Shown: piece by piece, positions 3,357 through 17,925 of the stretch | Layout of the letters: the number at the start of each line of letters is the position of its first letter | Numbering within the stretch: the stretch's first letter is position 1 | Origin: a virus | Lineage: Duplodnaviria > Heunggongvirae > Uroviricota > Caudoviricetes | IMG/VR virus record: IMGVR_UViG_2537562020_000004 | DNA length: 26,889 nt | Reading direction: 5' to 3' (one strand) | Notes under the pieces: model-generated | Seen by the model: the letters and a program-made list of their open reading frames with translations, nothing else | Told to the model about the DNA's origin: nothing | Database searches by the model: none | Program-made: the position numbers and the translations under genes

Positions 3357-3369
3357 CAAAAAAACACAA

Positions 3370-3400: not shown

Positions 3401-3472
3401 GTTTACAATAGACGCAGCCGTTATTAAATTTAAATCCAACAGCGTTAAAATAAACTAACAATATACGCATAA

Positions 3473-4513
3473 TTAATCTTTCCATTTAAAACCATTACAT
3501 AATGTTAAAGGATTAAATGTTACAGCCTCCTCAAGATGATCCGGGGAGAAATGTGCATACTTCATAGTTTCACGAATATTCGCATGACCGAGTATACGTT
3601 GCAGCACAAGAATATTCCCGCCATTCATCATAAAATGAGCGCCGAAGGTATGACGCAGAACGTGTGTCTTTTGCCCTTCCGTCAGTTCGATATCCGTTAG
3701 TTTGAGCATCTTTTTAAACTCCTGATAGCAAGGCTTAAACATCTTTCCCTGCCTTTCAGATAATTCGTCATACAACCATTTTGGGATCGGAACGGTTCGA
3801 TTCTTTTTCCCTTTCGTTTTGGTGAAGGTCAGTTTATGTGGCGAGAGCTGGGGACGTGTCAACCTCTCAGCCTCACCCCATCTAGCACCTGTTGCAAGAC
3901 AAATCTTAACAATCATGGTGAGGTCTTCTTTTCCGTATTGCTCGCATGCCTGAAACAATTTCGGAATTTGAGACAAAGTGAGCCAAGACATTTCTTTCTC
4001 GGCTTCCTTGAAAACACGGACTCCATCAAGTGGATTTGGTAAGCTCCACTCCCCTAGCCTTTTGAGCTCATTAAATACAGCCTCAAGATATTGTTGCTCA
4101 CGATTGACAGTTATCGGTTTAGCAATCCATTTTGCCGGGTCTTTATGATAGCCATTATCTATCTCCCCCCGAAGTCGGCGGTCACGGTAATGAGCCCAAT
4201 CTTTAGCAGTAAGGCGGGATGCAATAGGGTCACCAAGTCCATTACACACGATTTGAAGTTTAGCTAACCGCGACTTACTGGCGACCAGTGCCTGTCCGTG
4301 TAAATTATGCCAAAGCTGGATAATCTCACTTAAGCGTCGGCGGTCTTCTTTCTTGCCGAGCCACGGCTTATCCTCACTCTCACTTTTCGTAAATGCTTCG
4401 AATGCCTCGGCCTCACCTTTGGTATTGAATTGCCGACGTATACGCCGCCCTTCTCGACCATTTGGATAGAGCTCGCATAACCATTTGCCATTTTTTTGCT
4501 TACTTACAGTCAT
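3473..4513 (-). CDS. int: Phage integrase, tyrosine recombinase (346 aa)
   Basis: C-terminal catalytic region HVLRHTFGAHFMMNGGNILVLQRILGHANIRETMKYAHF typical of tyrosine recombinases (R..H..R..Y); located at the prophage end next to the repressor. Confidence 0.9.
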   Translation of the reverse strand: MTVSKQKNGKWLCELYPNGREGRRIRRQFNTKGEAEAFEAFTKSESEDKPWLGKKEDRRRLSEIIQLWHNLHGQALVASKSRLAKLQIVCNGLGDPIASRLTAKDWAHYRDRRLRGEIDNGYHKDPAKWIAKPITVNREQQYLEAVFNELKRLGEWSLPNPLDGVRVFKEAEKEMSWLTLSQIPKLFQACEQYGKEDLTMIVKICLATGARWGEAERLTRPQLSPHKLTFTKTKGKKNRTVPIPKWLYDELSERQGKMFKPCYQEFKKMLKLTDIELTEGQKTHVLRHTFGAHFMMNGGNILVLQRILGHANIRETMKYAHFSPDHLEEAVTFNPLTLCNGFKWKD

Positions 4514-4535
4514 AATGTCACCGAGGCAACTCTAA

Positions 4536-4874
4536 TTATTCCCAAAGTGCTGTTGCAGCATCCATTACAGGATCCAAAGGAATTTTTACGCCTGCATACT
4601 CCGGGCTATCTTTCCAAACAGTATCAATATTGCTCCCCTCAAGCTTTCCAGACTTTACTCCATCAATCGCAAAACCATTTAATGGGTATCGGTCATCTGT
4701 TGCTTTGTCGTACACAAAGGCATATTTACCGTTGACACAAGACACCGTAGCTTTTTCAAAAGTTAACGGCCAATCCTCACCAAACTTAGCGCCATCTAAA
4801 TCCTGTGTTTTTTCAGCGGCTGAGGCTCCAAAAGAAAGGGTAAGAAGCAGAGCTAAAAAGAGTTTACATTTCAT
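4536..4874 (-). CDS. Small secreted protein (112 aa) with N-terminal signal peptide; cargo gene between cI and int
   Basis: Start MKCKLFLALLLTLSFGASA-AEK (signal peptidase I-type site), RBS AAGGGA upstream; tightly packed between cI stop (4883) and int start (4513) on the same strand. Confidence 0.6.
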   Translation of the reverse strand: MKCKLFLALLLTLSFGASAAEKTQDLDGAKFGEDWPLTFEKATVSCVNGKYAFVYDKATDDRYPLNGFAIDGVKSGKLEGSNIDTVWKDSPEYAGVKIPLDPVMDAATALWE

Positions 4875-4882
4875 AATGTCCC

Positions 4883-5743
4883 TTACACGTGTTTTTCCAA
4901 TGTGAAAACTACAGCCCCGGCAGGAGTAATGTCTGTAATGTTGCATTCAAACTCAGCAGACTTATTTGACAACCTGACTTTTCCACCGGGCAAGCGAATT
5001 ACATCAAAAACATCAAGAGCGCCGTCGATATCAATTAACCAGCGACCATTACTTATATTCGAAGCAGAACAGTCGACAAGCCAAGAGGCAGCTACACCGT
5101 CAACAAAAATCAATTCCCCTGAGTTAGAAGGAATCATTGAGGGGTCAGGATGCCACGTTCCTGCATCCTTAAGCTCACCAGATTCAAGACGAGATTTTTT
5201 AATAGAAAAACCAGATGTGACATCTTCCCTGTTAGCTCGCATTTGCCCCTTGCCTGTTGCTAACCATTCCAGTGACGTATCGGTATCAAGAGCGCATGTA
5301 ACAACAACATCACCAGGGAAAAAATCTCGCCTTACCCATGTGCTAATTGTGCCAGAGGAAATGCCGAGCAAATCACCGAGCTCCTTTTGCATGGTAAAGC
5401 CATACGCATCAAGAATCCTACGCAAAACGGTTTTACCACCATTCGTCATAATCTCGTCATAAAGCTCTTTGCCTTTTAACTTGCAACTGGCTCGCTCGTG
5501 ATTTGCATTTGCAAGTTCTCCATTTACAAGCCAATTGATATCAGCTCCCGTGTCAAGACAACACCTAACTATGACATTGCCAGGTATTGCATCACGCTGA
5601 ACCCAGCCGCTAACGCTGTGTTTAGCGATACCTAGCAGGTCAGCCAAATCCTTTTGCATCTTGACCCCATAGGCTGACATTAAGCGTTCCAATACGCCGT
5701 TCGTTGCACTAACACGCCACTGAACATCAAGCTCAGAACTCAT
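4883..5743 (-). CDS. cI: Phage 186-type CI immunity repressor (286 aa) with tandemly duplicated N-terminal DNA-binding domain
   Basis: Two consecutive ~60 aa segments (AYGVKMQKDLADLLGIAKHSVSGWVQRDAIPGNVIVRCCLDTGADINWL and AYGFTMQKELGDLLGISSGTISTWVRRDFFPGDVVVTCALDTDTSLEWL) resembling the 186 CI N-terminal domain, plus a CI-like C-terminal domain; divergent from apl/cII. Confidence 0.85.
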   Translation of the reverse strand: MSSELDVQWRVSATNGVLERLMSAYGVKMQKDLADLLGIAKHSVSGWVQRDAIPGNVIVRCCLDTGADINWLVNGELANANHERASCKLKGKELYDEIMTNGGKTVLRRILDAYGFTMQKELGDLLGISSGTISTWVRRDFFPGDVVVTCALDTDTSLEWLATGKGQMRANREDVTSGFSIKKSRLESGELKDAGTWHPDPSMIPSNSGELIFVDGVAASWLVDCSASNISNGRWLIDIDGALDVFDVIRLPGGKVRLSNKSAEFECNITDITPAGAVVFTLEKHV

Positions 5744-5772
5744 AAAAACCCCTACAGATAATTTTATGGGTG

Positions 5773-5801
5773 TTTACAGAAAACTTTTTACGATCTATAG
5801 T
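5773..5801 (+). promoter_or_regulatory. Sigma70-like promoter (TTTACA-N17-TATAGT), candidate lytic promoter pR in the cI/apl switch region
   Basis: -35 TTTACA (5773-5778), 17 nt spacer, -10 TATAGT (5796-5801), oriented toward apl. Confidence 0.45.
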
Positions 5802-5864
5802 GGCATTCATCGACCAAGATGCACACCACTGCACTACATTTCAAACAACAGGAGATAATGCGAT

Positions 5865-6236
5865 ATGTCAGATGCAAAATCAATCTCGACGCACGACTCG
5901 CAAAACTCACAAAATCAAACTGTGCTGCTAGATCCAACACAGTTTGATGCCATCGTTACCGCCATGCTGCCAGCTCTACAGACAATGATTCGCTCCGCTA
6001 TGTCAGACACGATGACTGTGAAAGACTTCGCCGCTACTCGCGGTGTTAGCGAGCGTCTGGTCTGGCAATGGCTCGATGAGGGAGGCCTTCTCAAAGCTCC
6101 GACCAAAGACTTTTCCAACAAAGAAGAAGCTGCTAAACGAAGCCGAACCCTCGTAAACGTAAAAGCATGGCGCGATAAGCTGACTCAACAAGCGATTGAT
6201 TGTCGCTACATCGACCAGCGCACCGCTCTTAACTGA
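5865..6236 (+). CDS. apl: Apl/Cox-like HTH regulator/excisionase (123 aa as called; true start may be internal)
   Basis: Strong RBS AGGAG upstream of ATG 5865; HTH-like segment TVKDFAATRGVSERLVWQWLDEGGL; first gene of the rightward early operon opposite cI. Confidence 0.6.
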   Translation: MSDAKSISTHDSQNSQNQTVLLDPTQFDAIVTAMLPALQTMIRSAMSDTMTVKDFAATRGVSERLVWQWLDEGGLLKAPTKDFSNKEEAAKRSRTLVNVKAWRDKLTQQAIDCRYIDQRTALN

Positions 6237-6268
6237 ATTTGATTATGCAAGTTAGAGGGAATTTAACC

Positions 6269-6778
6269 ATGTTTGATTTTCAGGTTTCCAAACATCCCCA
6301 CTATGACGAAGCATGCCGCATTTTCGCACAGCGTCACAATATGGCGAAGCTGGCCGAGCGTGCAGGTATGAACGTTCAAACGTTACGTAACAAGCTCAAC
6401 CCGGAACAGCCTCACCAGTTCACGCCGTCTGAATTGTGGCTGCTGACTGACCTGACCGAAGACTCAACCCTCATTGATGGTTTTTTAGCGCAGATTCACT
6501 GCCTACCATGCGTGCCGGTTAATGAGTTGGCTAAAGACAAATTGCAGTCTTATGTCATGCGCGCAATGCGTGAACTCGGCGAACTGGCGAGCGGCGCGGT
6601 ATCTGATGAACGTCTGACCATTGCCCGTAAGCACAACATGATTGAAAGCGTTAACTCCGGCATTCGCATGTTGTCATTGTCGGCTCTGGCTCTGCATGCA
6701 CGTCTGCAGACTAATCCAGCTATGTCGAGCGTGGTCGATACCATGAGCGGTATTGGCGCATCGTTTGGTCTGATTTGA
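6269..6778 (+). CDS. cII: Phage 186 CII-like transcriptional activator (169 aa)
   Basis: Translation MFDFQVSKHPHYDEACRIFAQRHNMAKLAERAGMNVQTLRNKLNPEQPHQF... matches phage 186 CII as I recall it; RBS GAGGG upstream. Confidence 0.8.
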   Translation: MFDFQVSKHPHYDEACRIFAQRHNMAKLAERAGMNVQTLRNKLNPEQPHQFTPSELWLLTDLTEDSTLIDGFLAQIHCLPCVPVNELAKDKLQSYVMRAMRELGELASGAVSDERLTIARKHNMIESVNSGIRMLSLSALALHARLQTNPAMSSVVDTMSGIGASFGLI

Positions 6779-6785
6779 GGTGCGT

Positions 6786-6986
6786 ATGCTGAAAAGTGAA
6801 CCGTCATTCGCATCTCTGCTCGTTAAGCAAAGCCCCGGCATGCACTACGGCCACGGCTGGATCGCAGGTAAGGACGGCAAGCGCTGGCACCCGAGCCACT
6901 CGCAGGCTGATTTACTGGCTGGCCTCTCTACTCAAAAGCGGGGGGGCTCATGGCTATCGAAGCTGTTTCCGCGACTGTTCCGCTAA
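6786..6986 (+). CDS. Small early-operon protein (66 aa), hypothetical (position of 186 fil)
   Basis: ORF translationally coupled to cII stop, RBS GAGG (6777-6780); position only. Confidence 0.4.
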   Translation: MLKSEPSFASLLVKQSPGMHYGHGWIAGKDGKRWHPSHSQADLLAGLSTQKRGGSWLSKLFPRLFR

Positions 6987-7288
6987 AAGCGGGTGAACGT
7001 CTGGCCGGTCTCAATCATGTTGCCGAATTGCGCGCGAGATATTGGGGCGATAGCTGGAAAGAGGTTGAACGTTTTGTCGATGATATGCGCGATAAACGTG
7101 ACCCACAATTTGAAGAAAATAATCGGGCGCTGGCCGCTATTTTCTTTCTGGCAAAAATACCGGCGGCTCGTCATGAACTCGAATTAAGTGAGCTGACTAC
7201 TGACGAGAAAAAGGCGCTTATTACAGCGATGAATCATTTTCGTGCAGTAGTGAGCTTATTTCCCAAACGGCTAACCATGCCGAATTAA
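6950..7288 (+). CDS. Hypothetical early protein (112 aa)
   Basis: ORF with G-rich RBS before ATG 6950; overlaps the previous ORF by 37 nt in another frame. Confidence 0.5.
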   Translation: MAIEAVSATVPLKAGERLAGLNHVAELRARYWGDSWKEVERFVDDMRDKRDPQFEENNRALAAIFFLAKIPAARHELELSELTTDEKKALITAMNHFRAVVSLFPKRLTMPN

Positions 7289-7355
7289 TCCAAACAGAAA
7301 TTTAATGGCGTAAACCCGCCGGGCATCTTATTGCCCGAAATCAGGAGAGTTAATT

Positions 7356-7583
7356 ATGCGTAATACCGAAATCCGTAGTTTTAACACTGATAGCGATGCG
7401 CTGGCCGTATTGCTGACCGATGCAAAAAAAGAAGAGCGTAAAGACCGCGCGCTCGCTGTTTCCATCCGCCTTGAGGCGCTGGCTATCCATATTACCAGAG
7501 AGGGAATGAGCGGCACCGAAGCTGCCGAACTGCTGCGCCGTGAAGCAACCCGCTTTGAGAATGAATCACAGGAGCTGCACTAA
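7356..7583 (+). CDS. Hypothetical early protein (75 aa)
   Basis: Strong RBS AGGAGA 6 nt upstream of ATG; stop overlaps the next start. Confidence 0.55.
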   Translation: MRNTEIRSFNTDSDALAVLLTDAKKEERKDRALAVSIRLEALAIHITREGMSGTEAAELLRREATRFENESQELH

Positions 7584-7804
7584 TGGCCGACGCAATGGAT
7601 TTAGCACAACTGCGCGAGCAGGAAGACCGCGAACGCCACATCAGCAACGCACGCACCCGTATCGCTGCACCTTCCCGTTTTCTTTGCGAGGAATGTGACG
7701 CACCAATCCCGGAAGCTCGCCGCATTGCGATTCCGGGCGTGGCTTTTTGCGTAACCTGCCAGCAAATCGCAGAGCTAAAAAACAAACACTATCGGGGGGT
7801 ATAA
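7583..7804 (+). CDS. TraR/DksA-family C4 zinc-finger protein (73 aa)
   Basis: CEEC...CVTC motif (two CxxC pairs); small ORF immediately upstream of replication gene A, as in P2/186-family phages. Confidence 0.7.
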   Translation: MADAMDLAQLREQEDRERHISNARTRIAAPSRFLCEECDAPIPEARRIAIPGVAFCVTCQQIAELKNKHYRGV

Positions 7805-7805
7805 A

Positions 7806-10028
7806 TTGGCTGTTCAATTCGCTTATCCGTGGAACGTCCCACGGTCGGCAATCTCCAGCCCATACCTTACTTATGAGCAACAGCATCGCCGCGACCGTAT
7901 GTTCGCGGCTTTGCTGCATGCAAAAAAGGGGCTTTCTCTCCAGCCCGACTGCGTGCGGTTAGATGTTTATCGCACTGCTGCGGTGCTGGAACAAAATCAG
8001 GGTAGTCAACGAGCCAATGCATTTTTAATCAGCTTCTGCAAAAAGGCATTGCCGCGTCTTGAACTGGTCGCAAAAAAATCCGAATGCGCTGGTATCAACA
8101 GCAAGGTATCAACCGCTGTTTTTGGAAGTCATTTTGATACTCAGCAAATGCAATATCTGTCGTCACGCATGGTTAATATGGTCGCCCGATATAACCGTCT
8201 CCCGGACATGTCGCGCGCTGATGTTGACCTGTTGGCCGCTGATATTGCTAATTTCATTCGTGGTGAACTTGCCAACATTAATGACCACGGATTCGGCGAG
8301 CTTAAAACGCTGTACACCTGGTATATTCGTGCTGGCTTTATTTCCCTCCAATTCAACGTTATCCCACCACATTGGGAGCGGGTTGAAAAAAAATATGTCG
8401 GTGCGGATGAAATCGCACCGGCTATCGCCAAAATGTTTAACGATGGGGGGTGGCGCGGTCGTTTGCGCCGTGTAGCAGCTACGTGGCGCGAACACCTGCA
8501 AATTGCAGTCGGCAACGTCAGTAAGAAAAAAAACACTTACGCGAGTAAAAACTGCGTGACTGACTGGCGTGAACAAAAGCGCCGCACTCGTGAATTTCTC
8601 AAAGGTCTGGATCTCGAAGACGAAGACGGCAACCGTATCAGCCTAATTGAAAAATATGATGGCTCAGTTGCTAACCCTGCGATTCGCCGCTGTGAGCTCA
8701 TGACCCGCATTCGTGGGTTTGAAAACATCTGTAATGAGCTCGGTTATGTCGGTGAGTTTTACACTCTAACCGCGCCGTCAAAATATCACGCCACGACTAA
8801 AGCCGGTTACCGTAACAGCAAATGGAGCGGTGCCAGCCCGGCTGACACGCAAAACTATCTAACCGGTATCTGGGCGCGTATCCGTGCCAAACTACATCGG
8901 GAAGATGTCCGTATTTTCGGTATTCGTGTCGCCGAGCCCCATCACGACGGCACTCCACACTGGCACATGCTGATGTTCATGCTGCCGGAAGATGTTGAAT
9001 ATGTTCGCTCCATCGTCCGTAAATACGCATGGAAAGAAGACCGCCACGAACTGAAAAGCGATAAATCCCAAAAAGCACGTTTCCACGCGGAGTCCATTGA
9101 CCCGGAGAAAGGCAGCGCAACCGGCTATGTTGCTAAATACATTTCAAAAAATATCGACGGTTATGCTCTCGATGGTGAAACCGATGATGAAAGCGGTGAG
9201 CTGCTGAAAGAGACAGCCCCCGCCGTTTCAGCATGGGCTGCGCGCTGGCACATCCGTCAGTTTCAGTTTATTGGTGGTGCGCCGGTGACGGTTTACCGTG
9301 AGTTGCGTCGCCTCGCTGATACCGAAACCGCGCACGGTCTGAGCGTTGAGTTTGCCGCCGTCCATGATGCCGCCGACGCTGGTGACTGGGCTGGTTATGT
9401 TAATGCTCAGGGTGGGCCGTTTGTCCGTCGCGATGATTTACAGGTGCGCACACTGTATGAACCGCGTACCGAGCTTAATCAGTACGGTGAGGAAACGGTA
9501 TGTATTAAGGGGGTCTACGATTCCTCCATAGGTGCAGGAAGCCCGATTTTAACCCGGCTCACTCAGTGGAAGATTGTTCCGAAGCGTGCTGTTGATTTGG
9601 CCGTTGACCTTCAGGACGGCAAAGCCGTCCCTCGGAGTTCTGTCAATAACTGTACGGGAAGCGAAAGCGATCCACCGATACTGGATTTAACAAAACCACT
9701 GAGTCGGCGTGAAAGACGAGAATTGACCAACCGACTCAGGAAGCAAAAGCCAGCAGCACGGCGAAAATTCATCCACGGAACGGATGAGCAAAACGCAGCT
9801 ATAGCTAAAACTATCGATGAGATACATCTGACAACCGGCATTAATATCAGCCGGGGCGAAGCCCTGCACCTGATGGCCGGTGGTAAAAGTTGTTTTGATG
9901 GTAAATGGCTACGCGGAACGGCCAAAGGAGAAATATTTTCCGCAGCACCATCGCATGAGGCTAAAGCTCGGAAAATCCTTAATCGTGTTGCGGCGATGGC
10001 TGAAGCATCAAAACCAATACATGAGTAA
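7806..10028 (+). CDS. A: Replication initiation protein A (rolling-circle endonuclease), 740 aa; start codon uncertain (TTG at 7806 or ATG at 7899)
   Basis: Conserved block YTLTAPSKYH...RVAEPHHDGTPHWHMLMF...GYVAKYISKNIDGYALDG characteristic of P2 gpA / 186 A. Confidence 0.9.
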   Translation: MAVQFAYPWNVPRSAISSPYLTYEQQHRRDRMFAALLHAKKGLSLQPDCVRLDVYRTAAVLEQNQGSQRANAFLISFCKKALPRLELVAKKSECAGINSKVSTAVFGSHFDTQQMQYLSSRMVNMVARYNRLPDMSRADVDLLAADIANFIRGELANINDHGFGELKTLYTWYIRAGFISLQFNVIPPHWERVEKKYVGADEIAPAIAKMFNDGGWRGRLRRVAATWREHLQIAVGNVSKKKNTYASKNCVTDWREQKRRTREFLKGLDLEDEDGNRISLIEKYDGSVANPAIRRCELMTRIRGFENICNELGYVGEFYTLTAPSKYHATTKAGYRNSKWSGASPADTQNYLTGIWARIRAKLHREDVRIFGIRVAEPHHDGTPHWHMLMFMLPEDVEYVRSIVRKYAWKEDRHELKSDKSQKARFHAESIDPEKGSATGYVAKYISKNIDGYALDGETDDESGELLKETAPAVSAWAARWHIRQFQFIGGAPVTVYRELRRLADTETAHGLSVEFAAVHDAADAGDWAGYVNAQGGPFVRRDDLQVRTLYEPRTELNQYGEETVCIKGVYDSSIGAGSPILTRLTQWKIVPKRAVDLAVDLQDGKAVPRSSVNNCTGSESDPPILDLTKPLSRRERRELTNRLRKQKPAARRKFIHGTDEQNAAIAKTIDEIHLTTGINISRGEALHLMAGGKSCFDGKWLRGTAKGEIFSAAPSHEAKARKILNRVAAMAEASKPIHE

Positions 10029-10102
10029 TTCATATCCATATCATGCACATACAGCAATCGCTCTATTCGTTTTTTTTCTTCCCATCTTTTGCCAATACGT
10101 GC

Positions 10103-10122
10103 TACTGTATAAATATACAGTA
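10103..10122 (+). promoter_or_regulatory. LexA operator (SOS box) TACTGTATAAATATACAGTA overlapping a promoter (186 p95-like)
   Basis: Perfect CTGT-N8-ACAG palindrome with AT-rich centre; overlaps TATAAA -10-like hexamer; 20 nt upstream of the GGGAGGG RBS of the tum-like ORF. Confidence 0.75.
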
Positions 10123-10141
10123 ACCCTGTGGGAGGGATTTC

Positions 10142-10324
10142 ATGGTTGGCGAACATTTCAGCCGAACGCAGCAAAAGTGGGCTTGTGTGCAATTTATTGC
10201 CGAGGTATCTCTGATTGCAAACTGCAAGCCATCAGACTTAAAGCTCGCGCTCACTCTCATTGCAGACCTAGCAAACAGCGAGAATAACGAAACCGAAGAT
10301 GATAATTTTTATAAGGCTGATTAG
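10142..10324 (+). CDS. Tum-like SOS-induced ORF, N-terminal part (60 aa), ends at in-frame TAG
   Basis: RBS GGGAGGG 6 nt upstream; first ORF after the LexA box; in the same frame as the following DinI-like ORF, separated only by TAG (10322-10324) and ATT. Confidence 0.5.
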   Translation: MVGEHFSRTQQKWACVQFIAEVSLIANCKPSDLKLALTLIADLANSENNETEDDNFYKAD

Positions 10325-10327
10325 ATT

Positions 10328-10561
10328 ATGAGAATCAATATCACGTTGGATAAAGAGCAAAAAATTAGTCAGGCAACATTGGATGCACTTGAGGCTGAAC
10401 TGTACCGCAATCTTCAACCTATTTACCCAAAGACTGCTATCCGAATTCGCAAGGGCTCCGCTAATGGCGTTGAACTAAGCGGTTTGAAACTGGACGAAGA
10501 TAAAAAACGAGTAATGGAAATCATGCAGCAGGTATGGGAGGACGATAGCTGGCTGCATTAA
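10328..10561 (+). CDS. DinI-family protein (77 aa)
   Basis: MRINITLDKEQKISQATLDALEAELYRNLQ...MEIMQQVWEDDSWL resembles E. coli DinI (MRIEVTIAK...ILQETWESADDWF). Confidence 0.75.
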   Translation: MRINITLDKEQKISQATLDALEAELYRNLQPIYPKTAIRIRKGSANGVELSGLKLDEDKKRVMEIMQQVWEDDSWLH

Positions 10562-10563
10562 CA

Positions 10564-10632
10564 AACGCCGCCGGTGCTGAAACTTGCTTTCAGTGCTGGC
10601 GGGGTTGAACAACTCGCACCGCGAGGCGCTAG
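10564..10632 (+). repeat. 69 bp hairpin-containing element R1 (direct repeat copy 1)
   Basis: ~88% identical to 10969-11037; contains imperfect inverted repeat GCCGCCGGTGCTGAAA-cttgc-TTTCAGTGCTGGCGG whose mismatches are G-T (G-U wobble in a plus-strand transcript); starts 3 nt after a stop codon. Confidence 0.6.
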
Positions 10633-10756
10633 TTCTTCCTCTCAAAGTTTCTCGATGTTTTATTGGTTACACACCAGTGATGAATGGGACGTTACCTTAG
10701 CGGGTTTTATAGTGGCGCTGTGGCAGCGCTAAATAAAATTCATTGAGGGCGATAAT

Positions 10757-10966
10757 ATGCATCGACTACCGGGCGAAATTCCGCAGCACAAAACTAAAAG
10801 CATCAAACTGATGGCCATCGTTCATCGTCTGCAGCAGATAATGGTCAATGAGAATTTGACACCCGCCGAGCTGGTCGGGTGTGCCGAAATAGTCAGGGAT
10901 AATTACGGCAAGCTGGATAGCATCAGCAAGCCGACACATTACTCACCGCCACCACGTCGACCATAG
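10757..10966 (+). CDS. Hypothetical protein (69 aa) flanked by repeats R1 and R2
   Basis: ORF with RBS GAGGG 7 nt upstream of ATG; no recognisable family. Confidence 0.4.
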   Translation: MHRLPGEIPQHKTKSIKLMAIVHRLQQIMVNENLTPAELVGCAEIVRDNYGKLDSISKPTHYSPPPRRP

Positions 10967-10968
10967 AT

Positions 10969-11037
10969 AACGCCGCCGGAGCTGAAACTCGCTTTCAGGT
11001 CTGGCGGGGTTGAACAACGAGCTACGCGAGGCGTTAG
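10969..11037 (+). repeat. 69 bp hairpin-containing element R2 (direct repeat copy 2)
   Basis: Aligns with R1 with ~8 mismatches; same position relative to the preceding stop codon (TAG 10964-10966). Confidence 0.6.
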
Positions 11038-11099
11038 CCGGTCATAGCGTCGCAAATACTTCAACCGTCTGCTGGTTAAATAATTCGAGGTTTTTGGAC

Positions 11100-11294
11100 A
11101 TGCAAAATCCCCTTTCATCGAAAAATGACCCGTTTGCCGATTGGGCAAAGAATCTGACTTTAATGGCTTTAAATAACGACCTGAGCTCTCGCGAGGTGGA
11201 AAGCTACACCGCAAAAATGGTCGGGCAGGCCGGTAAAGATGAGCTATCAGTCGTTATCAAACACCTGTTAAATCACATCAGAATGCGCAAATAA
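11100..11294 (+). CDS. Hypothetical protein (64 aa)
   Basis: ATG 11100 with GAGG ~10 nt upstream; the longer track ORF (11010) would start inside R2. Confidence 0.4.
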   Translation: MQNPLSSKNDPFADWAKNLTLMALNNDLSSREVESYTAKMVGQAGKDELSVVIKHLLNHIRMRK

Positions 11295-11310
11295 GAGGAA
11301 CTATATAAAT

Positions 11311-11412
11311 ATGTTATCTCTCGTTTATGAAAATCCGTGGACGACGATTTTTCTGATGATTGTTGCCAGCATGTGCCTCAACAGTGTTATTGGCGCATTG
11401 CGCGGCCATTAA
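11311..11412 (+). CDS. Putative small hydrophobic peptide (33 aa, MLSLVYENPWTTIFLMIVASMCLNSVIGALRGH)
   Basis: Short ORF with AAGAGGA 11 nt upstream, one predicted TM-like segment, followed ~20 nt later by an intrinsic terminator; below the ORF-track size cutoff. Confidence 0.25.
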   Translation: MLSLVYENPWTTIFLMIVASMCLNSVIGALRGH

Positions 11413-11433
11413 TCGCGACAAAACCAGACTAAA

Positions 11434-11461
11434 ACCGGCACCCTGAATGCCGGTTTTTTTA
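11434..11461 (+). terminator. Rho-independent terminator ending the rightward early/SOS gene block
   Basis: Stem ACCGGCA/TGCCGGT (7 bp), 7 nt loop, followed by TTTTTTT. Confidence 0.7.
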
Positions 11462-11620
11462 TGCCATTTTTCCGCGAATTTCCCGTTTTTTAGTCGTGCA
11501 TGCATCAGGTGCATGGTTTTGCATGCGTCAGTCTTGCCCGTTCTGTCCGTGCGCCGCCAGAGCTAGCGCGGATCCAGAGTTGTCATGCAACTGCATTAAA
11601 ACCGCCCCATAAAGCGGGCA

Positions 11621-11639
11621 GGCGTGGCGGGGAAAGCAT
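11621..11639. other. cos: cos site (cohesive-end sequence GGCGTGGCGGGGAAAGCAT, phage 186-type)
   Basis: Exact 19-mer recalled as the 186 cohesive end (P2 differs at 2 positions); located between the early-operon terminator and the portal-side genes, as expected in a P2-family prophage. Confidence 0.6.
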
Positions 11640-11858
11640 TGCGCGCCAGCAGTGATGCGTAATAATAAAAATTATCCTCTGAGCGCGTCGTGATGGCGCT
11701 GTCGTGGTCGCTGCTGGTTCGTTGGTGGTCGAGTGTGTTCGTGCGCGTGAGACGCATCTGATGCGTGATGGTGGTGTGCATGGAAAAGCCACCAGGAGCA
11801 GCGGCTTTACAGGAGTGGCAGGATTCAAACTGCTAATTATGTTTCTACTATGATTAAA

Positions 11859-12863
11859 CTAATTTACATGTATGTAGAGTTCACCGTCGCCAGACCAATC
11901 GGGACACTCTAAAACAAGCCCAAACTGCTTGAATATTTCATCAATGATTATTGTTATCTCCCGAAAATCACCAAAACCTGTAATGTGCTGGTCATTAAAC
12001 TTCCCATAAAGATTCTGAAAAGCAATGCCTAATTCTGATAATTGATATCTTATCTTTGAGTTGGATAGTGTAAGGGATAGCTTTGGATCGTATTCTTTAA
12101 TATTGATGTTTAGAGAATGGACATAACCCATCGCATAAGCATAAGAGTTGATGATTAGCCTGATACGTTTTTTTACTTCAAGATACATGTCATTCAGAGA
12201 AATATTACCGTACTTATAACCCCAGATGAGTTTTTCAATCTCGTCAGATACTTCATTTACAACAGTGTCAAGATTCTCTAAAAATAAATCGACAGTTTCT
12301 TGAGGGGCAGACCCCGAAGACATGTAATTAGCGAGATATTCAGACCATGCACGCGTGGCTGAGATAAGAAGCGCGCTACCATACTCGTTGACTGTAAAGT
12401 TTTGGGCTAAGCATGTTAGTAAGTTTTTTTCATGTACGTGCACTAATTCATGGTGAATGCGATGGATGACTGCGAGGTATCCTTCTTCTTTCAGTTTTAA
12501 GAAGCTACCATCATTGAAAAGCTCAACAAAAAAATCAATCGATAGCACAAGGGTATATTCTTCATATAGCCCATCATTGCCAATTTTTGTTACTAACTGC
12601 CCGACGGCTGCGCCCTGTTTGCTATTGGTAAATGAACTAGGGGATTTGTGTTGGTAAGAGGATGTTACCTTTTGAAGAGCTTCACTGAAGTTATAGGAAA
12701 CAATCACGCATTTTAATTTGGAGATATCAAGATTGAGATTCTTTGTTAAAGCTCGGATAGCTTCTAGTGTGAAATTACCGATATTATTTGCTTCTTGCTC
12801 AGTAGCGAAACCTTCGAGGGTTATTTTAAAATCAGTTTCCAAAATATTAATCTCCGCGCCCAT
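11859..12863 (-). CDS. AT-rich hypothetical protein (334 aa) with HExxH motif (HELVH); cargo gene between portal gene and cos
   Basis: Long ORF with AT-biased composition contrasting with adjacent phage genes; HRIHHELVHVHE at aa 135-146 (nt ~12438-12452); co-directional with Q/P. Confidence 0.7.
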   Translation of the reverse strand: MGAEINILETDFKITLEGFATEQEANNIGNFTLEAIRALTKNLNLDISKLKCVIVSYNFSEALQKVTSSYQHKSPSSFTNSKQGAAVGQLVTKIGNDGLYEEYTLVLSIDFFVELFNDGSFLKLKEEGYLAVIHRIHHELVHVHEKNLLTCLAQNFTVNEYGSALLISATRAWSEYLANYMSSGSAPQETVDLFLENLDTVVNEVSDEIEKLIWGYKYGNISLNDMYLEVKKRIRLIINSYAYAMGYVHSLNINIKEYDPKLSLTLSNSKIRYQLSELGIAFQNLYGKFNDQHITGFGDFREITIIIDEIFKQFGLVLECPDWSGDGELYIHVN

Positions 12864-12940
12864 TGTTTTGATATTCGATGCACTATAGCTTTCGCAGATT
12901 GCATCTTCAATAATGAGCGCAGAGATTGTGGCGGCCTAAG

Positions 12941-13987
12941 TTATTCTGGGTTGTCGAGGGTGTACTCTTTGAATCTGATGACCTCCATGCCGAGCCAGTC
13001 ATTTACCTCCCTGAACCTGTCCTGTAGCGGCGACAGCTCGTTGCGCACAAATACCTTTGCCACCTTCTCAACATCACCGAGTGAACCGATATTCTCGGGC
13101 TTGCCGCCCATGAGCTGGAACGGTACGCGGTGCGCGTCCATCAGATCGGCGGCACTGGCCTTCTTGATGTTGAAAAAGTCATCCTTTGTGGCGACCTCGC
13201 TCAGTGGCACGATTTTGATGCCGTCCGGTTTTCCGCCGGGAGCGTAGAAAAACAGGTTCTTAAAGTTGCCGAGCCCTTTTGAGTTGCGCATCGCCTCGCG
13301 CAGCGATTCGACGTCGGTCGCGCTCTGCGCCGGGTCAGTCACATACATGATGTAGCCTGCGTGCGCGCCGTTCTGATAATACTTGCGGCGGAACAGCGTC
13401 GCGGATTCATTCAGCCAAGCGGAATTAAGCGCGCTGAGATATTCCGGCAGACCGTAAATCTCCTGATTAATGTCGGGCTCCAGCAGGTGAAACACGGTAT
13501 CAGGCGCGAACTCGTGCGGCTGGGGGAAGTTTTCCACAAACCAGAAAATCGAATCGTCGACTCCGCGTCGGGTGTATTTGGCTGGCGAGGCCAGCAGTTT
13601 GATTAACTGGCCGGTGACGCTGTGGCGCTGCTCAAGAAAGGCGTTACCGAACACCAGATAATCGAGCGCAAAGCGGCTGAAATCCTGACGGGATAACAAC
13701 GGGTGCGGAATGTAGGTGCTCGCGAGCACGTTACGCTTAACATAAATTGGCGAGCTGTGATGCACGGCAGAGCGCAGGCTCTTTGCCAGCCCTGAGAAGC
13801 TGACCGGCGGCTCGTACCATTTGCCGTTACTGATGCACTCGACGTAATCCAGAATGTCGCGCTTATCGAGTACCGGCACCGGCTCGCCGAAGGTGAACGC
13901 TGTCGTTTTTGGCGGTGCGCTGGCGGTCAGTTGTTGTGGTTTGCTGGCCTTTTGTGCGTTGGCTTTACGGGATTTTTGTTTACCCAT
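12941..13987 (-). CDS. Q: Portal protein (P2 gpQ-like), 348 aa
   Basis: Size, position next to large terminase and cos, basic N-terminus MGKQKSRKANAQ typical of P2-family portal proteins. Confidence 0.9.
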   Translation of the reverse strand: MGKQKSRKANAQKASKPQQLTASAPPKTTAFTFGEPVPVLDKRDILDYVECISNGKWYEPPVSFSGLAKSLRSAVHHSSPIYVKRNVLASTYIPHPLLSRQDFSRFALDYLVFGNAFLEQRHSVTGQLIKLLASPAKYTRRGVDDSIFWFVENFPQPHEFAPDTVFHLLEPDINQEIYGLPEYLSALNSAWLNESATLFRRKYYQNGAHAGYIMYVTDPAQSATDVESLREAMRNSKGLGNFKNLFFYAPGGKPDGIKIVPLSEVATKDDFFNIKKASAADLMDAHRVPFQLMGGKPENIGSLGDVEKVAKVFVRNELSPLQDRFREVNDWLGMEVIRFKEYTLDNPE

Positions 13988-13988
13988 T

Positions 13989-15758
13989 TTAGTTGAACTC
14001 CAGAATAGATTTAGGCTGCATGCCGCTACCGGCAGAAAGCGGTTCGTTTAACAGGGCGTGCATGGTCGCCCATGCGATATCGGCGTGGCTGGCTTCCTCG
14101 GTGCGGCTGGCCTCATAGGTGGCGCAGCGCCCGCTGCTGGTCATGGTTTTGCGGATGGACATAAACGACTGCGTGACGTCGGTTGCTCCGGCGTCGTACT
14201 CCAGACAGCCACGGCGAATGGTGTCTTTCGCCTTGAGTACCATTGCGGTTTTCATTTCAGGTGTGTAACGGATGCCGCGTGCCGCCGGGTAAAATGAGCG
14301 CACCAGCTGGAACACGCCGAGACCGAGGCCGGTTGCGTCAATGCCGATGTATTCGACGTTGTATTTCTCGGTCAGCTTGCGGATGCCCTCTGCCTGTGCT
14401 GCAAAATCCATGCCCTTCCACTGGTGGCGCTCCAGCATGCGGAACTTGCCACCAGAGACCACCGGCGGCGCGAGCACGACGCACCCGGCACTGTCGCCGG
14501 TGTGTGACGGGTCGTAGCCAATCCAGACAGGACGAGAGCCGAACGGATGGTCGGCGAACGGGGCAAAGTCCTCCCATTCCTCCATCACATCGACCATGCA
14601 GCGCTGCAGCTCCTCGAACGGGAATACCGACGCTTTATCGTCGACAAACTCGCACATAAACAGGTTCTTAAAGTCCTCATCACTGTTTTCGCGTTTGAGC
14701 TGGTCGAGGTCGAACAGGGTGCAGCCACCCGCAAGGGCGTCCTCAATGGTGACAATCTGCCGCCACTGGCCATCGTCGCAGAGCTGGCCACCGGCGAGCG
14801 CGCTGTGACTGATGTCGATTTCGATGCGGTCGGCAATCCGGCTGCGCCCCTTGTTGAACAGCTCGCCAGACCAGAAGGGGTAAGCGCCGTGCGCCAGCGT
14901 GGAAGGTGTCGAAAAATAGGTCGAGCGCAGGTGCTTTTGCGAGGCCATGCCCGAGGCGACTTTGCGCAGTTTCTGAAAATTCGGGATCCAGAATATTTCA
15001 TCGACATACAGATCGCCGTTATGGCTCTGCGCGGTGTTGGAATTGGTACCGAGAAAAATCAGTTTTGCGCCGTTGTTACCGATGACAATCGGGTCGCCAG
15101 TCAGGTCAACGTCGACCAGTCGCGCAAACTGGATGATGTATTCGCGGAACACGTAAGCCTGCGTTTTACTGGCTGATAAAAATATCTGGTTATGGCCGGT
15201 TTTGAGTGCGCGCAGCAGTGCCTCGCGGGAGAAATAGAATGTCGCGCCAATCTGGCGGGATTTGAGAATGTCACGAATACGGTGCTCCAGTCCTGCGCGG
15301 TACCACTGCAACTGGTACTCGAAAGACTGGTCGAAAAATAATTCCTCTAGTTTATCGATAGCCTCGTCGCTGAAAAAATTCTTTTTCGGCTTTTTGCGCT
15401 CCCCTTTGTTGCGGTTGGCGACGTTGGGGTTAAGGTCGGCTTCGTTGCCGGTCTGGCTGTAGCGGTTGACTCGCGCCAACCGTTCAATCTGCCGTCCGAG
15501 CAGGTCAATCTCTTTGAAATCACCCCCTGTCTTTTGCGGCTTGGCGATGAGCTGAATCAGCCTGGCCTCAAGGCTGCTTTCAACGCGGGAAATCGGCGCG
15601 ATGCCGTCCCAGCCGTCGCGCTGCTTCCAGCTCTGCACGGTCGGGCGCTTGACCTGCAGCATTTCGGCAATCTGTGGCACGGAAAAACCCTGCCAGTAAA
15701 GCAGCGATGCCTGCCGTCGCGGGTCATGCAACAAGGTTGTATCGGTGGAAATGGTCAT
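13989..15758 (-). CDS. P: Terminase large (ATPase) subunit (P2 gpP-like), 589 aa
   Basis: 589 aa, divergent from the scaffold/capsid operon, nucleotide-binding region (ATFYFSREALLRALKTGHNQIFLSASKTQ), P2 gpP-like organisation. Confidence 0.9.
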   Translation of the reverse strand: MTISTDTTLLHDPRRQASLLYWQGFSVPQIAEMLQVKRPTVQSWKQRDGWDGIAPISRVESSLEARLIQLIAKPQKTGGDFKEIDLLGRQIERLARVNRYSQTGNEADLNPNVANRNKGERKKPKKNFFSDEAIDKLEELFFDQSFEYQLQWYRAGLEHRIRDILKSRQIGATFYFSREALLRALKTGHNQIFLSASKTQAYVFREYIIQFARLVDVDLTGDPIVIGNNGAKLIFLGTNSNTAQSHNGDLYVDEIFWIPNFQKLRKVASGMASQKHLRSTYFSTPSTLAHGAYPFWSGELFNKGRSRIADRIEIDISHSALAGGQLCDDGQWRQIVTIEDALAGGCTLFDLDQLKRENSDEDFKNLFMCEFVDDKASVFPFEELQRCMVDVMEEWEDFAPFADHPFGSRPVWIGYDPSHTGDSAGCVVLAPPVVSGGKFRMLERHQWKGMDFAAQAEGIRKLTEKYNVEYIGIDATGLGLGVFQLVRSFYPAARGIRYTPEMKTAMVLKAKDTIRRGCLEYDAGATDVTQSFMSIRKTMTSSGRCATYEASRTEEASHADIAWATMHALLNEPLSAGSGMQPKSILEFN

Positions 15759-15923
15759 TGATGCCTCGCCGTAGTGGATTCAGGGCAAGGCTACTTAATG
15801 GCCGTCAGTGATTCGCTAAGGTGCTGTTGTGTGGACGGTTGTCCAGTCGTCATTGGTGGTCTGGCGTGTCCTGAGTCTGGAAACTGGCGGTGACCAGTAA
15901 CCTCAACCTCAGGACTCCTGACA

Positions 15924-16778
15924 ATGGCAAAAAAAGTCTCAAAATTCTTTCGCATCGGCGTCGAGGGGGACACCTGCGACGGCCGCATTATCAGCGGCAA
16001 CGATATTCAGGAAATGGCCGAATCGTTTGACCCTCGCGTCTACGGTTGCCGCATTAACCTTGAGCATATTCGCGGTCTCTTTCCTGATGGCGACTTCAAA
16101 CGCTTAGGCGATGTGGTTGAACTGAAAGCTGAAATAATTGACGACGATTCTGCGCTTAACGGCAAATGGGCGTTGTTCGCCAGAATCACCCCAACCGACG
16201 ACCTGATTGCGATGAATAAAAAATTGCAGAAGGTCTACACCTCAATGGAAATTCAGCCGAATTTTGCCAATACCGGCAAATGCTACCTCGTCGGCCTTGC
16301 TGTCACCGATGACCCGGCGAGCCTCGGCACTGAATACCTCGAATTCTGCCGCAACGCGAAGCACAACCCGCTGCAGCGCTTTAAGACCAACCCTGAAAAC
16401 GTCTTTTCCGCTGCCACTCTGGCCGAGCTGGAGTTTGAAGACGTTCCCGACACGGTGCTCAACAGCCTGGCCGATAAGGTGAAAGCCATTTTCAGCCGTA
16501 AGCAGGTCAGCGACGATGCGCGCCTGAATGATGTGCATGAAGCGGTGACCACCGTCAGCGAACATGTGCAAACCAACCTGACAAAACAGGACGAGCGCCT
16601 TTCCGCTATGGAAACCGCGTTTGCCACTTTCAAACAGGAACTGACCGGCAAGGTTGAAGAAACCAGCCAGGCATTTTCCGACCTGAAAACCACCCTCGAT
16701 AAAACCGAAAGTTTCAGCCAGCCGCGACGCACGAAAGCCAGCGGCGGTGGTGGCGATGAGCTGCTGACCGACTGCTGA
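15924..16778 (+). CDS. O: Capsid scaffolding protein (P2 gpO-like), 284 aa
   Basis: Length and position identical to P2 gpO; first gene of the rightward head operon. Confidence 0.9.
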   Translation: MAKKVSKFFRIGVEGDTCDGRIISGNDIQEMAESFDPRVYGCRINLEHIRGLFPDGDFKRLGDVVELKAEIIDDDSALNGKWALFARITPTDDLIAMNKKLQKVYTSMEIQPNFANTGKCYLVGLAVTDDPASLGTEYLEFCRNAKHNPLQRFKTNPENVFSAATLAELEFEDVPDTVLNSLADKVKAIFSRKQVSDDARLNDVHEAVTTVSEHVQTNLTKQDERLSAMETAFATFKQELTGKVEETSQAFSDLKTTLDKTESFSQPRRTKASGGGGDELLTDC

Positions 16779-16854
16779 TAAACCGCAGACCAGAAACCGG
16801 GCGGCATCCCCGCCCGATGCAGTGACTAACCGATAAATTCAAACAGGAAATACT

Positions 16855-17922
16855 ATGCGCCCGGATACCCGTTTTAAGTTCAATGCCTATCTGACCCGCG
16901 TCGCTGAGCTAAACGGCATCAGCACTGATGACGTCAGTAAAAAATTCACCGTCGAGCCGTCCGTCACGCAAACACTGATGAACAAAGTGCAGGAGTCATC
17001 CGCGTTTCTGCAGACGATTAATATTCTGCCGGTCGCAGAAATGAAGGGTGAGAAAATCGGCGTCGGTGTGACCGGTACTATCGCCAGCACGACCGACACC
17101 TCGGGCGATGATGAGCGTAAGACCGCCGACTTCACCGCGCTTGAGTCCAACAAGTACGAGTGCGACCAAATTAATTTTGACTTCCATCTGAAATATAAAA
17201 CCCTCGACCTGTGGGCGCGTTTTCAGGACTTCCAGCGCCGCATCCGCGACGCCATTGTCAAACGTCAGGCACTGGATTTCATCATGGCCGGTTTTAACGG
17301 TACCACCCGCGCCGCCACCTCTGACCGCACCAAAAATCCGATGCTGCAGGATGTGGCCGTCGGCTGGCTGCAGAAATACCGCAATGAAGCCCCGACGCGC
17401 GTGATGAGCAACATCACCGACGCTGACGGTAAGGTCGTTTCAGCAGTGATTCGTGTAGGTCGAAACGGCGACTATGAGAACCTCGACGCGCTGGTGATGG
17501 ACGCCACCAACAACCTGATTGACGAGGTTTATCAGGATGACCCGAAACTCGTTGCCATCGTTGGCCGTAAGCTGCTGGCCGACAAATATTTCCCGCTGGT
17601 GAACAAGCCGCAGGAAAACAGCGAGGCGCTTGCGGCAGATATCATCATCAGCCAGAAGCGAATCGGCAACCTGCCTGCTGTGCGTGTGCCGTACTTCCCG
17701 GCGAATGCCGTGTTAGTGACCACGCTGGAAAACCTATCTATCTATTTCATGGATGAGAGTCACCGCCGCAGCATTGATGAAAACCCGAAAAAAGACCGCG
17801 TTGAAAACTACGAGTCGATGAATATCGACTATGTGGTCGAGGCGTATGCCGCCGGGTGCCTGCTGGAAAACATCACCCTGGGCGATTTCACCGCACCTGC
17901 AGCACCGGAAAGCGGAGCCTAA
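16855..17922 (+). CDS. N: Major capsid protein (P2 gpN-like), 355 aa
   Basis: MRPDTRFKFNAYLTRVAELNGI... closely resembles the P2 gpN N-terminus; follows the scaffold gene. Confidence 0.9.
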   Translation: MRPDTRFKFNAYLTRVAELNGISTDDVSKKFTVEPSVTQTLMNKVQESSAFLQTINILPVAEMKGEKIGVGVTGTIASTTDTSGDDERKTADFTALESNKYECDQINFDFHLKYKTLDLWARFQDFQRRIRDAIVKRQALDFIMAGFNGTTRAATSDRTKNPMLQDVAVGWLQKYRNEAPTRVMSNITDADGKVVSAVIRVGRNGDYENLDALVMDATNNLIDEVYQDDPKLVAIVGRKLLADKYFPLVNKPQENSEALAADIIISQKRIGNLPAVRVPYFPANAVLVTTLENLSIYFMDESHRRSIDENPKKDRVENYESMNIDYVVEAYAAGCLLENITLGDFTAPAAPESGA

Positions 17923-17925
17923 ACC

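Follow-up and report, generated by a model that had tools for sequence, protein, structure and literature searches.

A strand-specific hairpin element with a near-invariant 3′ module at the gpA-side border of the cargo hotspot in P2-like prophages

The DNA analysed in this study is a stretch of 26,889 nt from a virus of the Caudoviricetes (IMG/VR record IMGVR_UViG_2537562020_000004), referred to as the window. It holds a P2-like prophage of the 186/PSP3 type, which across positions 10100-11320 shares 93% identity with the Salmonella phages SW9/SI22 and PSP3. Our subject is an element of 69 nt that is present twice (R1 and R2) downstream of gpA and that an earlier note on this DNA had described as a pair of hairpin elements bracketing a small gene. 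The locus is composed of the following features, with sizes of open reading frames (ORFs) in amino acids (aa):

7806-10028, + strand: gpA
10103-10122, + strand: consensus (perfect) LexA box TACTGTATAAATATACAGTA, read directly from the sequence; promoter of the SOS operon that holds R1 and R2
10142-10324, + strand: tum-like ORF of 60 aa, first gene of the SOS module (phrog_1993, E 1e-31; annotated as tumA in PSP3)
10328-10561, + strand: DinI-family gene (Pfam DinI, E 7e-24) with the stop codon TAA at 10559-10561
10564-10632, + strand: R1, upstream copy of the element (covariance model, 92.2 bits)
10633-10756, + strand: spacer of 124 nt, confined to loci with two copies
10757-10966, + strand: gene of 69 aa ending in ...PPPRRP, bracketed by R1 and R2 (phrog_11386, E 2e-47), with the stop codon TAG at 10964-10966
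10969-11037, + strand: R2, downstream copy of the element (covariance model, 92.4 bits)
11100-11294, + strand: ORF of 64 aa (phrog_2454) between R2 and the operon terminator
11311-11412, + strand: strongly hydrophobic ORF of 33 aa, MLSLVYENPWTTIFLMIVASMCLNSVIGALRGH, last ORF of the LexA-controlled operon, just 5′ of the terminator
11431-11460, + strand: intrinsic terminator AAAACCGGCACCCTGAATGCCGGTTTTTTT, equivalent of 186 t95b by comparison with the 186 annotation and by sequence; likely the end of the SOS operon
11621-11639, + strand: cos cohesive-end sequence GGCGTGGCGGGGAAAGCAT of the 186 type
11859-12863, − strand: cargo gene of 334 aa between cos and the portal gene Q (phrog_11743, E 1e-156; no Pfam domain)

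In the 186 record, the matching region is annotated as p95 with a LexA site. With the LexA promoter upstream and the t95b-equivalent terminator downstream, R1 and R2 thus lie inside one SOS-controlled operon. A repeat search returned the two copies as a single family of 69-nt direct repeats at a spacing of 405 nt. The pair described before is therefore real, but its identity amounts to 87% (60/69) instead of about 88%. In both cases the gap between the preceding stop codon and the repeat is 2 nt. With a covariance model built from relatives R1 and R2 score ~92 bits each (E ~4e-22), and a scan with this model detected no third copy on the + strand of the window.

Both copies fold into a 43-nt hairpin (HP1), in agreement with the long imperfect hairpin proposed for each of them, and a small second hairpin (HP2). 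R1 consists of HP1 at 10564-10606 with the loop at 10583-10587, the linker GAACAA (10607-10612), HP2 (CTCGC-ACC-GCGAG, 10613-10625) and the tail GCGCTAG (10626-10632). Its HP2 belongs to a fully Watson-Crick minority type and its tail shows a T to C change at the sole variable tail position. R2 comprises HP1 (10969-11011), the linker (11012-11017), an HP2 of the tandem G·A type (CGAGC-TAC-GCGAG, 11018-11030) and the tail GCGTTAG (11031-11037). When folded as RNA, the + strand reaches −35.5 kcal/mol (z −4.0) for R1 and −30.7 kcal/mol (z −2.9) for R2, whereas the complementary strand is weaker with −25.3 kcal/mol (z −1.5) and −22.4 kcal/mol (z −1.7), respectively; the same folding advantage of the + strand is obtained under DNA parameters. 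The G-T positions claimed for the stem of R1 are indeed present at unit positions 10/34, 12/32 and 13/31.

Further copies were gathered in three ways: by a 15-mer in IMG/VR, by a tail-anchored pattern and by the covariance model over 79 species-level loci found through gpA, a set that is unbiased towards the element. The anatomy is based on ~100 copies and the pairing statistics on 81 distinct sequences. Within the 69-nt unit, HP1 is formed by positions 1-3/41-43 and 5-19/25-39 and closes on a loop at 20-24 (mostly CUYGY); it is followed by the linker GAACAA (44-49), HP2 (50-54/58-62) and the tail GCGTTAG (63-69). The hairpin is conserved across related prophages with compensatory changes, as the covariation check proposed in the earlier note revealed. 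Both sides change in 14 of the 18 pairs of HP1, and 95.5% of cells are paired, compared to 32-44% with the partner slid; the observed values were reached by none of 500 shuffles. The alignment used here was fitted to the model, and an alignment by MAFFT only gives the same direction. In several gpA-anchored copies (loci L185, L196, L163, L167 and L142) the stem is wholly replaced, yet still pairs. Across the family there are 167 G·U cells versus 18 A·C cells, so that the wobble asymmetry pointed out for R1 is a family-wide property and the folded strand is the + strand, i.e. the sense strand of the SOS/early operon. A conserved mismatch is located at position 4/40 (G·G in 58 and C-G in 18 of 84 copies). 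HP2, outside the Watson-Crick minority that includes R1, mostly reads C-G, G·A, A·G, G-C, C-G with its tandem G·A; it is supported by compensatory changes in L064 (G-C to A-U), in L079 (CCCGC/GCGGG) and in the R1 type.

The stem is followed by a near-invariant 3′ module, GTTGAACAAC-CGAGCnnnGCGAG-GCGTTAG, which had been left out of the earlier account. In contrast to the stem, the stretch GTTGAACAAC...GCGAGGCGTTAG is near-invariant in the unbiased set (21-24 of 24). Conservation of the element starts at the stop codon, and its most conserved part is predicted to be largely unpaired. The HP1 loop (CUYGY) is complementary to GCGAG with 92.7% of cells paired. A loop-to-tail pseudoknot may thus form, but variation is one-sided, and the complementarity is lost in copies with A/U-only loops and in L035; it is not required. 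A closing helix 1-6/62-67 (AACGCC/GGCGTT), which is present in the consensus, was rejected, as it is not kept in divergent copies and the 5′ end covaries with 38-43 instead. Comparison of the invariant module with the rest of the window for complementarity or identity gave chance 8-mers only. Two 8-mers common to the element and cos, GCGAGGCG and TGGCGGGG, the second of them in the variable stem, were both taken as GC-rich coincidence. A protein-coding function was rejected as well: the ORFs over R1 and R2 are in different frames, stem variation is compensatory and the variable HP2 triplet straddles codons.

The tail GGCGTTAG resembles the core GGCGGTAG of the ops element GGCGGTAGCGTG, which is recognised on the non-template strand at G5/T6 and ends in a 3′ TG pause. 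An RfaH-type, ops-like pause or antitermination signal, at which an antiterminator would be loaded as the polymerase enters the cargo, would make sense at the entrance of horizontally acquired genes; seven of the eight bases match the ops core, and two lineages (L157, L142) carry GGCGGTAG exactly. However, the mismatch concerns ops position 5, a recognised base, which is also the one place in the tail that varies (T, G or C; usually T). In addition, the 3′ part of ops (..TG) falls in variable DNA, cargo genes are often on the opposite strand, and a 7/8 match within 30 nt has, by rough estimate, a random chance of ~1%. Such a signal is therefore considered extremely improbable, and the RfaH ops element as such was rejected: the tail reads GGCG[T/G/C]TAG, with mostly T at position 5, and the bases after TAG are variable. 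A promoter scan detected no sigma-70 promoter in or at the element. Readings as sigma-54, sigma-E or LexA sites were rejected by eye; CTG-N11-CAG has the wrong spacing for LexA.

A BLAST search with R1 detected the element in 66 phage records, including 186 itself (30344-30412), where the earlier note had not placed it, Wphi, PSP3, SEN1, Erwinia phage EtG and phages of Yersinia and Klebsiella. No feature is annotated at the element in any of the 66 records, nor under the E. coli genome matches listed, which agrees with the former statement that no described element of this form was known in P2/186 phages. The element is present in 555 of 5426 complete E. coli genomes at a median of one and a maximum of three places, and on 19 plasmids; the one inspected, an IncC plasmid, harbours a P2-like prophage in which a cargo gene for a reverse transcriptase adjoins the element. 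Every inspected context is a P2-like prophage. In the Klebsiella pneumoniae IncC plasmid NZ_CP021835.1 (L292), a complete-looking P2-like prophage spans 2799-18068, with the reverse-transcriptase gene directly after the element, and prophages of this type are found in ~200-kb conjugative IncC plasmids of Klebsiella, E. coli, Enterobacter and Citrobacter. With one to three copies per genome, in P2-like prophages only, we are dealing with a single-locus phage element and not with a dispersed repeat. A known repeat family such as REP or ERIC, a match to which would have refuted the earlier note, is not matched either in copy number, in location or in Rfam. Over the whole window, Rfam 15 gives no match at gathering thresholds, and at E<=10 the best match within 10300-11300 is a chance minus-strand miRNA match (19.5 bits versus a threshold of 52).

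Reference P2 does not carry the element, even with search filters off; orf91 is followed there by 38 nt and then tin. It is also missing from ~59 of the 79 gpA loci (~75%), among them some with 86-89% gpA identity, and no analogous hairpin was found in the gpA loci without it. The element is thus accessory. An essential P2-type cis site (ori, cos or lagging-strand origin) was rejected in view of these absences and of a distance to cos that is not fixed. A presence/absence comparison over the 79 loci revealed no partner protein specific to element-bearing loci, only lineage markers of 186-type early regions.

These absences also bear on a signal in single-stranded DNA (ssDNA), which would act in lagging-strand priming or primosome assembly on the strand displaced by gpA rolling-circle replication and would be exposed ~0.9 kb after the ori nick. 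A block within gpA, CCTCGGAGTTCTGTCAATAACTGTACG (9630-9656, + strand), is invariant even at synonymous sites in 62 gpA genes of 50-97% identity and corresponds to the annotated nick region of the P2 ori (GCGCCTCGGAGTCCTGTCAATAAC). It lies on the same strand 0.9 kb upstream of the element, to which it shows no similarity. The ori nick is annotated on the + strand in the P2 record, P2 gpB is annotated as required for lagging-strand synthesis, and the fold is + strand-specific under DNA parameters, too. However, replication cannot require an element that reference P2 and ~75% of gpA loci do without, and a signal for replication would not be expected to keep a fixed distance from a stop codon; the literature consulted did not confirm in which direction P2/186 replicate. 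We regard this possibility as very improbable.

Every copy lies in gpA orientation, 0.3-2.6 kb downstream of gpA. The upstream genes belong to three unrelated families, namely DinI-like, 186 orf97-like and the 69-aa gene, homologues of which are located 5′ of the element in Wphi and in P2-like phages and in 40 of 109 copies. A stop codon exactly 2 nt before the hairpin was observed in 56 of 84 distinct copies (TAG 25, TGA 16, TAA 15). In the orf97 type the true stop lies 6 nt earlier, and the canonical position is taken by another TGA in the same frame. The 69-aa protein always ends in a run of prolines and arginines (PPPRRP, PPPRRR or PPPRQR), which lies 3-4 codons from the hairpin-abutting stop; PPP is known as an EF-P-dependent ribosome-stalling motif.

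The fixed distance of 2 nt with all three stop codons would suit a translational control. A ribosome terminating 2 nt before HP1 would melt the base of HP1, and GAGG of the tail would serve as Shine-Dalgarno (SD) sequence for a gene 2-4 nt after ...GTTAG. In this way the element could couple or gate translation of the gene that follows. Alternatively, ribosomes stalled at the stop-proximal hairpin, an effect reported for REP, would damp the gene in front of it. At least eight divergent lineages have an ORF starting 2-3 nt after the tail with GAGG as its SD sequence, 8-9 nt before the ATG; these ORFs are either of the phrog_2100 85-aa family or an ORF of 107 aa, the N-terminus of which looks UmuD-like by eye. 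HP2 or the HP1 loop can pair with GCGAG and would then occlude the SD sequence. However, the window, 186, Wphi and most E. coli and Salmonella copies have no ORF after the tail, which is equally invariant there; moreover, the dinI-adjacent copy decays when a second copy lies downstream, and an SD sequence alone needs no 30 invariant bases. Taken together, translational control seems unlikely as the function of the element. As a side observation, members of the phrog_2100 family (85-89 aa, MAGHDLDFQVVYRG...PNYSLF) start 2-16 nt after the element in L128 (10822-11095), L157, L094, L165, L167 and L244, in prophages of the Enterobacter, Pantoea and Erwinia type. The gene order dinI-element-phrog_2100 may be the ancestral context.

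Two copies were detected at 13 loci including the window. They are always ~405 nt apart and bracket the same 69-aa gene in 13 of 13 cases, which supports the description as a duplication resembling a cassette boundary. The upstream copy is the lower-scoring one at all 13 loci: in related loci it reaches 43-88 bits compared to 90-96 bits for the downstream copy (for example 43 vs 95, 54 vs 96 and 75 vs 94 bits), and in the window the scores are 92.2 vs 92.4 bits. Several upstream copies have lost HP2 or tail bases. The upstream copy thus decays, while the promoter-distal copy is kept under strong constraint. Wherever the upstream copy of another two-copy locus passed the motif scan, it is followed by the same spacer class (TTCT.CCT.TCAAAG...) as in the window; this spacer is not found upstream of the 69-aa gene in Wphi and one P2-like phage. 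In the window, the spacer contains a weak hairpin (GCGCTG-TGG-CAGCGC followed by the A/T-rich TAAATAAAATT, 10714-10740, + strand), which may represent a weak partial terminator at a position comparable to 186 t95a. Across the family, the subtypes of the hairpin and of the HP2 loop are combined with one another and with either flank in a shuffled manner, and this suggests crossovers in or next to the element.

On the downstream side, 42 unrelated sequence classes start directly after ...GCGTTAG, including cargo genes on either strand, and on the upstream side several unrelated contexts end 0-5 nt from the hairpin. The distance from the element to cos ranges from ~210 nt (186) to ~3.4 kb (Wphi). 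Since the unrelated classes all begin after ...GTTAG, the cargo/defence hotspot near cos has its left edge at the element, a position that the earlier note had not recognised. Nothing conserved follows the element ahead of the insertion point of the gpA-gpQ ('TO') hotspot, for which 1,650 gene arrangements were described (Rousset et al., PMC9122126). The element is mentioned neither in this paper (PMC9122126) nor in later papers on the hotspot. In the window, the 334-aa gene sits between cos and Q; cargo is thus found on both sides of cos, towards Q and towards gpA. A convergent cargo gene of 143-162 aa (L100 1566-1997 on the − strand, L027, L041, L123, L126) was observed to have its stop codon TAA in the reverse complement of the element's TTAG; as this TAA lies in the complement of the conserved tail, the stop codon is borrowed from the element.

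Such a sharp border raises the question of a function on the DNA, as an anchor for recombination or as a boundary of cassettes. Cargo would be exchanged at the invariant 3′ block, perhaps aided by the folded strand, through short-homology recombination or a site-specific activity, and the element would persist because its keepers can swap cargo; this would be compatible with a function on the mRNA. The unrelated classes directly after ...GCGTTAG, the upstream contexts ending 0-5 nt from the hairpin, the shuffled hairpin and HP2-loop subtypes and flanks, the small gene bracketed in a cassette-like manner at 13 loci and the location at the left edge of the gpA-gpQ hotspot (PMC9122126) are in favour of this explanation. 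However, homologous recombination of duplex DNA needs no hairpin and gives no strand-asymmetric G·T covariation, and the comparison of loci with and without the element revealed no associated recombinase. With only 20 + 12 nt, the perfect blocks do not exceed the length that RecA-dependent exchange usually requires as a minimum. Furthermore, a sharp edge also arises where functional constraint ends, and in reference P2 this locus is occupied by cargo (tin, old) in the absence of the element. Altogether, we rate a recombination anchor as rather doubtful.

A special form would be a folded-single-strand recombination site, similar in kind to attC or to the attP hairpin of CTX phage and unrelated to them in sequence, through which 'gene + hairpin' cassettes and defence cargo would be gained, lost and swapped by P2-type phages at one exact nucleotide after ...GTTAG. 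By analogy, the element shares with attC the conservation of structure over stem sequence, a conserved unpaired stem position, a function that would involve one folded strand, short AAC...GTT ends, a sharp boundary and the organisation in 'gene + site' cassettes. It differs in that neither attI nor long arrays were seen at element loci and in its copy number of at most two per phage. An integron attC proper was rejected: the 5′ flanks (such as GACAAAC and AGATAAC) and the 3′ GTTAG followed by variable bases do not fit RYYYAAC/GTTRRRY, and covariation supports a pairing of positions 1-3 with an internal GTT at 41-43 and not with 65-67. No recombinase was tied to the element by the comparison of ORF presence and absence, in which no search was aimed at IntI. 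Altogether we think a site of this type quite unlikely.

In phage 186 the element is located between the stop codon of orf97 and the annotated p95 terminator t95b, i.e. in a 3′ untranslated region (UTR), with t95b 24 nt beyond it. A terminator or antiterminator lacking a U-tract had been among the functions suggested for the pair. The former can be dismissed: HP1 is followed by GAACAAC and not by a U-tract, a terminator scan lists the element on neither strand, and the p95 transcript of 186 ends at t95b downstream. Antitermination is disfavoured, since p95 transcripts are annotated to end at t95b right after the element. The same end argues against read-through as at the HK022 put sites, which are similar in their two-hairpin shape of ~70 nt.

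In general, cargo-free contexts have an intrinsic terminator next to cos, 22-104 nt downstream of the element. Here, a trans-acting small RNA (sRNA) derived from the 3′ UTR may be considered: cleavage near the stop codon would free HP1, the single-stranded module and the terminator, and GAACAACGAGC / GCGAGGCGUUAG would act as seed for host or phage mRNAs. The strong terminator at this distance (186 type; a class of 81 loci), conservation from the stop codon on and the largely unpaired prediction for the most conserved part are consistent with such an sRNA. Against it, most cargo-bearing contexts have no terminator within 150 nt downstream, and no complementary target stands out in the window, which makes an sRNA improbable.

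Two further observations concern the SOS operon. The 33-aa hydrophobic ORF, for which no Pfam or PHROG match was found, looks like a small membrane peptide induced by the SOS response, either similar to TisB or a type-I toxin or acting in exclusion, and different small hydrophobic ORFs are located directly 3′ of the element in L036, L076, L105 and L115. A direct repeat of 26 nt with 77% identity connects 10091-10116, overlapping the LexA box, with 11287-11312, where it overlaps the start of the 33-aa ORF and its ribosome binding site. As the latter copy (CTAT...ATGT) is not a LexA box, the repeat is probably due to chance.

We tentatively favour the element as a cis-acting mRNA hairpin that serves as a barrier to 3′-exonucleases and/or as a processing site. 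Its sense-strand specificity, the abundance of G·U pairs, the fixed distance to the stop codon whatever the stop or gene and, in 186, its place in the 3′ UTR of the p95 transcript all suggest that it works on the mRNA. That the distal copy is the one retained would fit a function tied to the end of the operon or the border of the cargo and not to one particular gene, and the accessory distribution fits a modulatory, non-essential role. Since a folded DNA single strand would give the same covariation, we can only infer that the folded molecule is RNA and that it acts by stabilisation or processing. According to this mRNA model, the element is transcribed in the SOS/early operon immediately 3′ of the stop codon with which the last backbone gene ends, and is followed by variable cargo or, where cargo is lacking, by the operon terminator. 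Exonucleases moving 3′->5′ would be halted by the hairpin of 18-19 bp next to the stop codon, which may double as a processing point for an endonuclease (RNase III or RNase E). The upstream coding segment would thereby stay intact and stable, and the RNA 3′ of ...GUUAG would be uncoupled from it. The two-copy arrangement would have arisen by joining two 'gene + element' modules (dinI-element and 69-aa-gene-element) in tandem, and as only the promoter-distal copy would be needed, the upstream one would decay.

Several known systems come close to the element. REP/BIME stem-loops stabilise upstream mRNA segments in enterobacterial operons, as exemplified by the malE-malF REP, and stop-proximal REPs were reportedly found by Liang and colleagues in 2015 to affect translation. 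Like these, the element is an imperfect GC-rich palindrome directly after a stop codon, in or at the end of an operon, without a U-tract and able to occur in tandem around small genes. However, REPs have ~35-40 nt and hundreds of dispersed copies without an invariant 3′ module, compared to 69 nt and one to three copies, in P2-like prophages only. The T7 early-mRNA sites and the lambda sib retroregulator are phage hairpins processed by RNase III; they share with the element a hairpin of about two turns, a conserved internal mismatch, the sense-strand location between or after phage genes, the possibility of several copies per transcript and a role that would lie in setting the ends and the stability of mRNAs. 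The predicted stem of 18 pairs with one mismatch would be compatible with the ~20 bp of double-stranded RNA cleaved by RNase III. On the other hand, these sites have no invariant flank of 30 nt, and neither sequence similarity nor an Rfam match connects them with the element. In T4-type phages, 'promoter-early stem-loop' (PeSL) cassettes, attributed to Arbiol and colleagues (2010), are said to combine a short conserved stem-loop with a conserved sequence at the borders of small genes of a hyperplastic region, for which modular shuffling was proposed. There, the conserved part is a promoter and dozens of copies exist, whereas the element has no sigma-70-like promoter and one or two copies at a single locus. 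Lambdoid phages contain conserved 'boundary sequences' or linkers at gene junctions; these are likewise short conserved intergenic blocks where mosaic joints cluster, but they are plain homology patches and not a covarying, strand-specific fold.

Several points weigh against the mRNA hairpin. An exonuclease barrier needs only a stable stem, and the near-invariant ~30 nt after it (GTTGAACAACGAGCnnnGCGAGGCGTTAG) are unexplained while the stem turns over; it is because of this 30-nt module that our preference is no more than tentative. Covariation and tolerance of G·T are also expected of a folded DNA single strand. In the 186 type, a canonical terminator hairpin follows 24 nt downstream, so that another protective hairpin would seem superfluous, and in L100 the genes flanking the element on either side are on the minus strand, so that its location in a sense 3′ UTR is less than obvious there.

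In the literature searched, which did not cover older studies on the border or on the 186 SOS region, neither the element sequence nor a hairpin at the gpA-side cargo border was found. The family, its invariant module and the nucleotide-exact position at the hotspot thus appear to be undescribed so far in this literature, although a phage intercistronic or 3′ hairpin that possibly doubles as a mosaic joint is an already known kind of element. In P2-like prophages, the stretch from gpA to the portal gene is among the best-known reservoirs of anti-phage defence systems. Its rapid turnover has been ascribed, as a speculation, to recombination at cos for one side and to homologous exchange for the other, but the mechanism is open (PMC9122126, PMC13586616).

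Our results show that in a large sub-lineage, which includes 186, Wphi and PSP3 and accounts for ~10% of complete E. coli genomes, the left edge of this hotspot is marked to the nucleotide by an unannotated element. Its covariation signal is among the clearest to be hoped for in 69 nt and is accompanied by an unexplained invariant module. The element can be used as a precise landmark to delimit cargo, as a candidate for a new RNA (or ssDNA) motif family in Rfam, and as a short mutable target in the tractable phage 186. If it is only an mRNA stabiliser, the finding is a modest one, yet an annotation gap in a model phage is filled. If a folded-strand recombination site were true, it would provide a mechanism for the turnover of the gpA-gpQ hotspot.

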